Shown: positions 37,894-38,101 of the stretch, in pieces | Layout of the letters: each line of letters begins with the position of its first letter | Numbering within the stretch: the stretch's first letter is position 1 | NCBI GenBank assembly: GCA_902495305.1 | Contig: CABUWG010000001.1 | Coordinates: forward strand, 4,784 to 68,783 | From: an uncultured Pseudomonadota bacterium | GTDB taxonomy: Bacteria; Pseudomonadota; Alphaproteobacteria; RF32; CAG-239 | DNA: 64,000 nucleotides | Reading direction: 5' to 3' | Made by a program: the position numbers and the translations under genes | The notes under the pieces: generated by a model | Told to the model about the DNA's origin: nothing | Databases searched by the model: none | What the model saw: the letters and a program-made list of their open reading frames with translations, nothing else

Positions 37894-38101
37894 AGCAGGA
37901 AACTGCTTAGGGCGTCGAAAACCCTTTTATAGACTTAGTCGTGTGCACACGACTTTAACTTGTGCCGACTTCTGATTCTATCTGGACGGATGTCGGTGAA
38001 TAAGGCTCAGCCAAATAAGCCGAGCCGTTTAAGTCTATACGGTTTTCGAACATCCGCCCGCCTTTTTTAAGAGCGGGTTTTGTTTTAACTAGTTAACAAG
38101 G
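37894..38101 (+). promoter_or_regulatory. Structured 5-prime leader with multi-stem junction and intrinsic terminator (candidate riboswitch/attenuator)
   Basis: GAAA-tetraloop hairpin agcag-gaaa-ctgct (37894-37907). Closing helix tcgaaaacc/ggttttcga (37915-23 : 38041-49) plus atagactta/taagtctat (37929-37 : 38030-38). Three enclosed hairpins (37938-53, 37964-97, 38004-26). Terminator cccgc..gcggg + TTTTGTTTT (38057-38085) lies about 15 nt before the ATG. Confidence 0.5.

Follow-up and report, generated by a model that had tools for sequence, protein, structure and literature searches.

What controls the autotransporter gene at positions 38114-40810 of the window, a 64,000-nucleotide stretch of DNA from an uncultured gut alphaproteobacterium, and what is the RNA encoded directly upstream of it? 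A first-pass annotation of this DNA had described a folded leader with a terminator in front of the gene and had taken it for a candidate novel cis-regulatory RNA. The observation is confirmed. Positions 37888-38113 contain no open reading frame (ORF) and encode a structured leader, about 200 nt long, with an intrinsic terminator at its end. The accompanying interpretation is partly supported. Our reading is that the leader is a two-state cis-acting element that would control the autotransporter both by premature termination of transcription and by masking of the ribosome-binding site; we put its probability at about 0.72.

The RNA from 37885 to 38095 has a minimum free energy (MFE) of -82.2 kcal/mol, compared with -52.8 +/- 4.4 for shuffled sequences (z = -6.7; none of 200 shuffles is as stable). 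The free MFE structure of 37888-38120 (-82.9) corresponds to a clamped form, here called fold A, with the terminator nested within a helix formed by segment c and the ribosome-binding site. The 5' half and the clamp of this fold consist of the following elements.

37893-37908, + strand: P0, the 5' hairpin GAGCAG-GAAA-CUGCUU (fold prediction)
37910-37914, + strand: segment x, GGGCG, nearly invariant; its partner is CGCCC (38055-59) or, as GGGCGU, ACAUCC
37915-37923, + strand: 5' strand of P1, UCGAAAACC; its partner is 38041-38049
37928-37936, + strand: 5' strand of P2, UAUAGACUU; its partner is 38031-38039
37937-37965, + strand: P3 hairpin, AGUCG (37937-41) with CGACU (37950-54), and an H-type pseudoknot, GCACA (37945-49) with UGUGC (37961-65)
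37964-37997, + strand: P4, the a/b hairpin, GCCGAC..UCUG with CGGA.GUCGGU (fold prediction)
38031-38049, + strand: 3' strands of P2 (38031-39) and P1 (38041-49)

Most of these elements agree with the first-pass annotation: the GAAA-tetraloop hairpin (37893-37908), the two-part closing helix (P1, 37915-23/38041-49; P2, 37928-36/38031-39) and the hairpin at 37964-97, which is P4, are all present. The perfect palindrome reported at 37938-53 exists, but it cannot pair fully, and comparison of the copies gives the 5-bp stem P3 plus the pseudoknot. The hairpin at 38004-26 is present too, but its outer pairs GGCUC/GAGCC are not conserved, and only GGC/GCC is. Two predicted features had been overlooked, namely the pseudoknot and the masking of the ribosome-binding site (ACAUCC 38050-55 with GGAUGU 38100-05).

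Copies of the leader belong to two subtypes: the surface-gene subtype, which is the kind seen in the window, and the regulator-gene subtype, which is the kind seen before small regulator genes. Fold A was assessed on a MAFFT alignment of 43 surface-gene copies that had not been fitted to any structure. In this alignment 89.8% of the cells are paired, and the covariation score is 0.270, against 0.139 for shuffled alignments (none of 500 reaches the observed value) and at most 0.067 with the partners slid. P1 is paired in 96.9% of the cells and has four pairs changed on both sides, and in P2 this is true of all eight counted pairs. The duplex energy of P1 is -11.4 kcal/mol with its own partner and -7.2 with the partners of other copies; the corresponding values for P2 are -8.9 and -1.4 kcal/mol, the own partner being the best one in 33 of 40 cases. 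P3 is 99.5% paired and occurs in the variants GGUCG/CGACC and AGUCA/UGACU. In the helix of the pseudoknot 97.2% of the cells are paired; one pair reads UA in 23 sequences but CG in 18 others, and the variants among the copies are GCAU/AUGC, GCAA/UUGC and ACAU/AUGU.

P4 locks GGACGGAUGUCGG into a hairpin with GCCGAC..UCUG and thereby sequesters segment b in fold A. It is 94.4% paired, the changes within the surface-gene subtype being wobble-only. In distant copies the segments a and b' and the P5 partner change jointly (CUGAC/GUCAG/CUGAG in locus L107). At the position of P0 a hairpin of at least 4 bp, unrelated in sequence, is found in 33 of 40 distinct copies (mean z = -3.5). A copy on contig C46 of this genome and its orthologue (L073 and L076) have no separate P0 hairpin; there, the segment CUUAAGG, of which the conserved AGGG is part, pairs with a CCUUAG further upstream, and segment x is sequestered in a different way.

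Folded alone, the 3' domain adopts another structure, fold B (-26.1), formed by the following segments.

37984-37992, + strand: segment b, GGACGGAUG, a mimic of the ribosome-binding site; its partner is a in fold A and c (38051-59) in fold B
37993-38023, + strand: P5 arm of fold B, UCGG (37993-96) with CCGA (38020-23) (Rfam alignment, A6)
38025-38042, + strand: P6 of fold B, CCGU with ACGG; its loop is the 3' strand of P2
38050-38059, + strand: segment c, ACAUCCGCCC; it contains ACAUCC (38050-55), the complement of the ribosome-binding site, and CAUCCGCCC, the partner of b

The core of fold B is a 9-bp helix of GGACGGAUG (37984-92) with CAUCCGCCC (38051-59). P5 encloses an invariant AAUAAG, the hairpin GGC-UCA-GCC (38004-12) and AAAUAAG. 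Folds A and B are mutually exclusive, because b has the rival partners a and c and because the P6 loop is the 3' strand of P2. The segment UCGG (37993-96) also has two possible partners, the 5' GCCGAC and CCGA (38020-23).

A joint MAFFT alignment of both subtypes (A3) was structurally inconsistent and was not used for a model. A covariance model, R1, was seeded only from regulator-gene copies in fold B, and the copies were then re-aligned with the model. R1 recovers every surface-gene copy end to end with 30-48 bits; its match to the element in the window covers 37984-38086 (41 bits, E = 3e-8). In the 55-sequence alignment of both subtypes, the fitting of which to the model favours the structure, 94.8% of the cells are paired and 21 of 25 pairs are changed on both sides; the covariation score is 0.377, against 0.146 for shuffled alignments (0/500) and at most 0.061 with the partners slid. 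Both sides are changed in six of the seven pairs of the b/c helix (helix 1 of alignment A6) and in all four pairs of P5 (helix 2 of A6), which is 99.1% paired. P6 (helix 4 of A6) is 99.3% paired, with the variants CCAU/AUGG and CCGA/UCGG. The first-pass proposal of a structured cis-acting leader with a terminator and mutually exclusive pairings is thus supported by helices, P1, P2 and others, that are conserved and covary in homologous leaders.

Three further features mark the ends of the RNA and the start of the gene.

37858-37886, + strand: promoter-like site, TTGATT (37858-63), a 17-nt spacer and TAGAGT (37881-86) (read from sequence)
38057-38086, + strand: intrinsic terminator, CCCGC (38057-61), loop, GCGGG (38073-77) and UUUUGUUUU (38078-86)
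38098-38116, + strand: ribosome-binding site AAGGAUGU and likely start codon (read from sequence)

The terminator had already been recognized in the first pass, with its stem (38057-61/38073-77) and UUUUGUUUU (38078-86). In the 43-copy alignment its stem is 94.9% paired, and its 5' arm shares three nucleotides with the end of segment c. The start of the autotransporter is most likely the ATG at 38114-16 (MKKALLMTTALVALVSANNAFA), behind the putative ribosome-binding site AAGGAUGU (38098-38105); another in-frame ATG, at 38102, falls within this site. The distance of about 15 nt from terminator to start codon given earlier agrees with the 16 nt between the end of the U-run and the ATG at 38102, but 28 nt separate it from the likely start at 38114. 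Transcription from the promoter-like site would begin at about 37891-37895, that is, at the foot of P0. Orthologous copies have better -10 boxes (TATAAT, TATAAA) in the same position.

In the free MFE structure of 37888-38120, ACAUCC (38050-55) pairs with GGAUGU (38100-05) around the terminator, and this pairing holds in 88.4% of the cells across copies. Segment b, segment c and the ribosome-binding site change jointly: the triple is GGAUGU/ACAUCC/GGAUGU in this leader, whereas regulator-gene copies have GGAGUG/AGCUCC/GGAGCU and L109, a copy of another family, has GGAUUU/AAAUCC/GGAUUU.

In one genus, 17-22 leader copies (L062, L077, L083-L094; genome G012) precede paralogous genes of type IV prepilin-like proteins (GRSMIEMLGVLAI...). 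The ribosome-binding site of these copies is CGGAGGUU, not GGAUGU; apart from a single mismatch, its pairing with AACAUCCG is retained.

As to mechanism, the leader most likely works in cis as an attenuator and masks the ribosome-binding site as well. In the default, OFF state the RNA would adopt fold A, in which the 5' half would clamp the 3' half and P1 and P2 would close the structure. Segment c would be left free, because b would be locked into P4 by segment a. The terminator (38057-86) would then form, transcription would stop there, and an RNA of about 195 nt would be released; in read-through transcripts ACAUCC would mask GGAUGU (38100-05). If fold A were prevented or fold B stabilized, b would capture c over 9 bp. 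Fold B, which we infer to be the ON state, would close a three-helix domain (with P5 and P6) of the shape of sRNA-Xcc1, a small RNA (sRNA) considered below; it would take three nucleotides from the 5' arm of the terminator and would free the ribosome-binding site. Candidate triggers are a ligand, a protein or an RNA that would act on the 5' pseudoknot and clamp or on the invariant AAUAAG/AAAUAAG loop. By analogy with Brt1 of Bartonella, an additional action in trans is possible for the terminated RNA.

This scheme resembles attenuators with a terminator, an antiterminator and an anti-antiterminator, as well as dual-acting riboswitch platforms: b has the choice between a and c as its partner, c extends into the terminator, and the ribosome-binding site is masked. 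Unlike those systems, the leader has no conserved leader peptide and no known aptamer. No conserved ORF was found in the leaders; there are only mechanical TTG or ATG frames of 24-36 aa that cross regions of insertions and deletions between the copies. A leader-peptide attenuator was rejected: there is no conserved short ORF, and the length differences between copies in P2, P4 and P5 are not multiples of three.

Control by CsrA/RsmA was rejected as well. The ribosome-binding site ACAAGGAUGU resembles the CsrA consensus from in vitro selection (SELEX), with its GGA motif. The genome encodes no CsrA (PF02599), control genomes being positive in the same search, and other subtypes use GGAGCU.

By sequence comparison, the leader is one copy of a large uncatalogued RNA family of gut Alphaproteobacteria, which occurs mainly before genes of surface proteins and small regulators. 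In this genome (1.87 Mb in 86 contigs, 44.8% GC) a second full copy with 78% identity is found on another contig before a lipoprotein-like gene, the similarity extending through the ribosome-binding site. In the regulator-gene subtype, the 3' third of the leader recurs before about 33 small genes of this genome (86-105 aa). Their products are helix-turn-helix-like, with weak matches to Pfam helix-turn-helix families below the threshold, and each of these copies carries a conserved promoter, CTTGCAAAA-N17-TAATAT. The hidden Markov model of the regulator-gene subtype matches surface-gene copies with E = 5e-9 to 4e-6.

The modules of leader and small helix-turn-helix gene are found on contigs C4, C11, C13, C18, C19, C27, C29, C33 and others (e.g. 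C11:730-916, C13:33372-33558), and the small proteins form three subfamilies (MLSREYRKKW..., MKNIKYQSRA..., MGKYYFYS...). Three copies are truncated or interrupted (C28, C51, C40). Many modules are situated at contig ends and therefore break the assembly. Relatives of the small regulator proteins are found only in assemblies of uncultured gut "Alphaproteobacteria bacterium" (from mouse gut, water-deer rectum and similar sources).

BLAST found the surface-gene subtype in 21 of 41 relatives, all of the same family, and a single genome carries up to 17-21 of them. Ahead of orthologous autotransporters, orthologous leader copies are 83-95% identical and occupy the same locus in related species. 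In L051 (1721-1939), from a close relative, the leader is followed by an orthologous autotransporter ORF of no more than 72 aa, which may be a pseudogene or contain a frameshift. All copies are oriented alike, and each stops 20-30 nt ahead of a start codon. By a crude rule, 35 of 41 downstream ORFs have a signal-peptide-like or prepilin-like N-terminus. The exported products are autotransporters, beta-barrel outer-membrane proteins (PF13505), nine proteins with a lipobox, and pilin-like and cysteine-rich secreted proteins. The other downstream genes include those of an XRE regulator (PF01381), an EcoRI-type methylase and a resolvase-type helix-turn-helix protein (PF02796).

A covariance model built from both subtypes, R2, scores the element in the window at 94 bits and has 34 matches in this genome. 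Of the 40 genomes of the same family it detects 38, which represent 22 of 23 genera and have 1-34 copies each. Among 401 evenly sampled genomes of the class, 20 are positive; they belong to ten families, and all are genomes of 0.9-2.3 Mb. The 3' domain is thus present in nine or more further alphaproteobacterial families with small genomes. The copies in other families stand before genes of lipoproteins, membrane proteins, glycosyltransferases and small regulators.

Is this a known RNA? Nowhere in the window does an Rfam family score as high as its gathering threshold. A permissive Rfam scan of 37650-38250 (601 nt, E up to 10) gave no riboswitch family and no GEMM-like motif, in line with the first-pass statement that no common riboswitch class is recognizable; no T-box and no RAT/PyrR/ANTAR-type motif was found in the Rfam scans. 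Rfam C4 (the c4-type antisense RNA of phage P1) is absent from the ten matches at E<=10, and at E<=0.1 it is absent from 14 related loci. Other matches at E up to 10 (to miRNA, snoRNA, ctRNA and similar families) are at chance level. In a related mouse-gut assembly, the locus L022 (762-1100) matches the cspA thermoregulator below threshold (RF01766, 35.3 bits where 78 are required, E = 1e-5).

The remaining match is to sRNA-Xcc1 (RF02221): the full model, 1-87, aligns to 37984-38067 with 34.7 bits against a gathering score of 53 (E = 2.7e-4), and other leader copies score 34-37 bits. The two RNAs share the b/c closing helix, a two-tier hairpin with A-rich internal loops (AAUAAG...AAAUAAG), a second hairpin and a U-rich joiner. 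sRNA-Xcc1, from Xanthomonas campestris, is described as a trans-acting sRNA of integron cassettes, plasmids and prophages, whereas the leader is chromosomal, multi-copy, found before surface-protein genes and alphaproteobacterial. Moreover, the shared domain forms only the 3' half of the leader of about 200 nt, the 5' half of which (P0, P1, P2, the pseudoknot and a) can unfold it, and a terminator separate from it and a complementary ribosome-binding site come after it here. Copies of sRNA-Xcc1 have been found upstream of symE in integron cassettes (bioRxiv 10.1101/2025.06.18.660453) and upstream of an ORF6N gene in an APSE phage (10.1101/2020.03.17.996009).

The closest architecture is that of the Brt1-9 RNAs of Bartonella. 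These are abundant, highly structured, terminated RNAs of 194-203 nt with their own promoter, present in 2-34 copies per genome; their terminal stem-loop is situated about 15-20 nt upstream of the gene of a small XRE-type regulator (Trp), and they have been reported as unique to Bartonella (PMC5387305, PMC8070961). Deletion of the 3' stem-loop of Brt1 de-represses trp1 (PMC5387305, PMC8070961). Expression of the gene downstream of Brt1 responded neither to shifts between 27 and 37 C nor to pH, and haem has been suggested as a signal (PMC8070961, PMC5387305). Knock-down of Brt1 alters badA expression (PMC5387305).

Five plasmid-borne Brt copies, recovered via published primer sequences, were compared. 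A fold A-like structure is 92.8% paired in them, with nine doubly changed pairs, four of them in P2, and a fold B-like structure is 98.9% paired. The leader and Brt have in common P0, a GGG segment with P1, P2, an a/b hairpin, a 9-bp b/c helix, P5, and P6 with the 3' strand of P2 as its loop. Both are structured RNAs of about 200 nt (in the window, about 195 nt from the promoter-like site to the U-run), have the 3' stem-loop directly upstream of a gene, and are present in many copies, about 34 of them in this genome, where about 33 sister copies repeat the Brt-Trp arrangement of a leader and a small helix-turn-helix-like gene. Unlike Brt, the copy in the window precedes an autotransporter gene instead of a regulator gene and has an additional pseudoknot domain; the 3' hairpin of Brt has no U-run; and the host is an uncultured gut alphaproteobacterium, not a Bartonella. 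The leader and Brt thus share an architecture and probably a mechanism; we claim no proven homology.

Elements similar to sRNA-Xcc1 are also found on plasmids of Bartonella kosoyi (L047, 1625-1714, + strand) and B. grahamii (L048, 1606-1693, + strand), with 47.4 and 49.5 bits against 53. Such an element is distinct from Brt, stands directly upstream of a gene for a hypothetical protein and points away from the pair of Brt and regulator; therefore both types of RNA are situated side by side on Bartonella plasmids.

The novelty claimed in the first pass holds in the sense that the RNA is absent from Rfam 15 and the searchable literature, but it is a member of a multi-copy family, with sub-threshold kinship to sRNA-Xcc1 and an architecture like that of Brt. 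We describe it as an attenuator leader related to sRNA-Xcc1 and resembling Brt. That it is a structured leader is strongly supported.

Several points weigh against the two-state mechanism. Forced b/c pairing costs about 20 kcal/mol relative to fold A in nested folding; therefore kinetics or a factor would be needed to reach fold B. Within the surface-gene subtype fold B is nearly invariant, with only six doubly changed cells in b/c, and the b/c covariation derives from the comparison between the subtypes on a model-fitted alignment. The overlap of b/c with the terminator stem is only 3 nt. The promoter-like site matches the consensus in 8 of 12 positions, which is under the cut-off of the promoter scan, and the scan did not list it. 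The link to Brt is one of architecture only: the nhmmer profiles of both subtypes and R1 have no match in the Brt loci, and R2 gives 17.3 bits (E = 0.12) with a wrong alignment. Lastly, GGGCG/CGCCC could be the true antiterminator instead of b/c.

The last point leads to a different wiring, that of the first-pass annotation, in which the leader would be a classical ON riboswitch. The P1-closed domain (P1, P2, P3 with the pseudoknot, P4 and P5) would be a ligand-binding aptamer; when stabilized, it would extend P1 by pairing GGGCG (37910-14) with CGCCC (38055-59) and so sequester the 5' arm of the terminator. ACAUCC would be held in a bulge, transcription and translation would proceed, and fold B would be only an intermediate or the unliganded state. 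The pairing does appear in the MFE structure of a transcript cut at 38070, before the 3' arm of the terminator, and the regulator-gene subtype has an equivalent pair, GGUG...CACC, with the same geometry of a 6-nt bulge. A P1-closed junction, a pseudoknot and invariant single-stranded blocks are typical of aptamers. Many copies precede surface-protein genes, as do riboswitches for cyclic di-GMP; the genome encodes three GGDEF proteins, and cyclic di-GMP may be the signal. But the comparative support goes to b/c. GGGCG/CGCCC is beyond covariation testing, because both strands are nearly invariant, and the equivalent 5' segments in Brt and in the leader of the other autotransporter of the window pair with the part of c that is complementary to the ribosome-binding site (GGGA/UCCC, CGGAG/CUCCG). 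This wiring leaves the conservation of b/c and its covariation across the subtypes unexplained, and no known aptamer matches in the Rfam scans. We consider it unlikely.

Another possibility is that the locus is mainly an independent gene of a trans-acting sRNA, like sRNA-Xcc1 or Brt1, and that the autotransporter is expressed from elsewhere or by leaky read-through. The promoter-like site, the strong terminator and a product of about 195 nt fit this, as do the trans-acting label of sRNA-Xcc1 and the abundance of Brt1, the knock-down of which changes badA expression (PMC5387305). Yet the 12 nt or so between the U-run and the ribosome-binding site leave no room for another promoter, and every copy is aimed at a start codon 20-30 nt away. 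The covariation of the ribosome-binding site with c and b makes sense only in cis, and the variability of P0 and P2 is hard to reconcile with a conserved seed that would pair in trans. A mainly trans-acting RNA is thus quite improbable; a dual function, in cis and in trans, is possible.

It is very unlikely that the leader is an RNA thermometer or a constitutive damper, in which the masking helix and the terminator would lower expression or melt with heat in the absence of any specific trigger. A 6-bp helix does mask the ribosome-binding site, and the organism is host-associated; but two global folds, a pseudoknot and invariant loops go far beyond the needs of a thermometer, these gut bacteria live at constant temperature, and expression of the gene downstream of Brt1 does not change between 27 and 37 C (PMC8070961). 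A mobile repeat of the miniature inverted-repeat transposable element (MITE) or repetitive extragenic palindromic (REP) type, with no function at the RNA level, would account for the many copies, the long inverted repeat formed by their ends (P1 and P2) and the location of several of them at contig ends, but was rejected on the compensatory variation of P2 and P0, which vary in sequence yet stay paired and so point to selection on RNA structure instead of copying, on the fixed orientation towards a gene with a matched ribosome-binding site, and on the retention of orthologous copies at the same locus in related species with 83-95% identity.

The leader is situated in a 396-nt gap between two genes.

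36854-37717: aldose-1-epimerase gene (PF01263), the upstream neighbour of the leader
38114-40810, + strand: autotransporter gene with a signal peptide, the regulated gene (Pfam PF03797, Autotransporter beta-domain, E = 2.5e-55)

Directly past the stop codon of the aldose-epimerase gene there is a hairpin GGCCGGCU-loop-AGCCGGCC (37741-37769), which is probably the terminator of that gene and would insulate the promoter of the leader from upstream transcription. Just downstream of the autotransporter, on the opposite strand, is a gene of an ATPase_2/DUF234 protein (an archaeal-type ATPase, 41210-42610, - strand).

The first-pass annotation had also assigned a leader of the same overall plan to autotransporter 1 of the window. 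This leader is a distant member of the family.

16394-16660, - strand: leader of autotransporter 1 (R2: 31.5 bits, E = 1.1e-4, over 16546-16425)

It has a fold z of -7.1 and an nhmmer E-value of 1e-3. Its segments b and c are GGUCGGGGAG and CUCUCCGGCC, and its terminator is CCACC..GGGUGG followed by a U-run. The longest ORF of autotransporter 1 (13374-16475, - strand) begins within its own leader and terminator (16393-16475). As read from the sequence, the true start is the ATG at about 16393 (MRNKLLFSTALVAAAFAASNALA), behind AAGGAAAG; automatic annotation would probably lengthen the protein by about 27 aa.

The competition between a, b and c, together with the masking of the ribosome-binding site, provides a mechanistic frame for two orphan RNAs: Brt, which controls the BadA adhesin via the Trp regulators, and sRNA-Xcc1, which is filed as trans-acting and is repeatedly found upstream of genes. 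Because b, c and the ribosome-binding site covary as a triple, the model lends itself to direct testing. A tentative and, in our view, doubtful extension is that the leader with its approximately 33 sister leaders, the Brt RNAs and sRNA-Xcc1 form one superfamily of bistable "clamped" RNAs, acting here as a signal-responsive ON switch, which would either represent a riboswitch class not yet described or serve as the site where a dedicated RNA-binding factor docks. If so, sensing would be the task of the 5' pseudoknot and the P1-P2 clamp, or of the invariant AAUAAG/AAAUAAG loop. A single global signal would in that case set the entire surface and secreted proteome (autotransporters, porin-like outer-membrane proteins, lipoproteins and pilin-like proteins), and the same signal would set a bank of XRE regulators in host-associated Alphaproteobacteria with small genomes. 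If the switch is real, one RNA module, present in 1-34 copies per genome, would govern most exported proteins and many small regulators of a widespread, uncultured group of gut Alphaproteobacteria, and it would be an RNA, not a protein operator, that defines the regulon.

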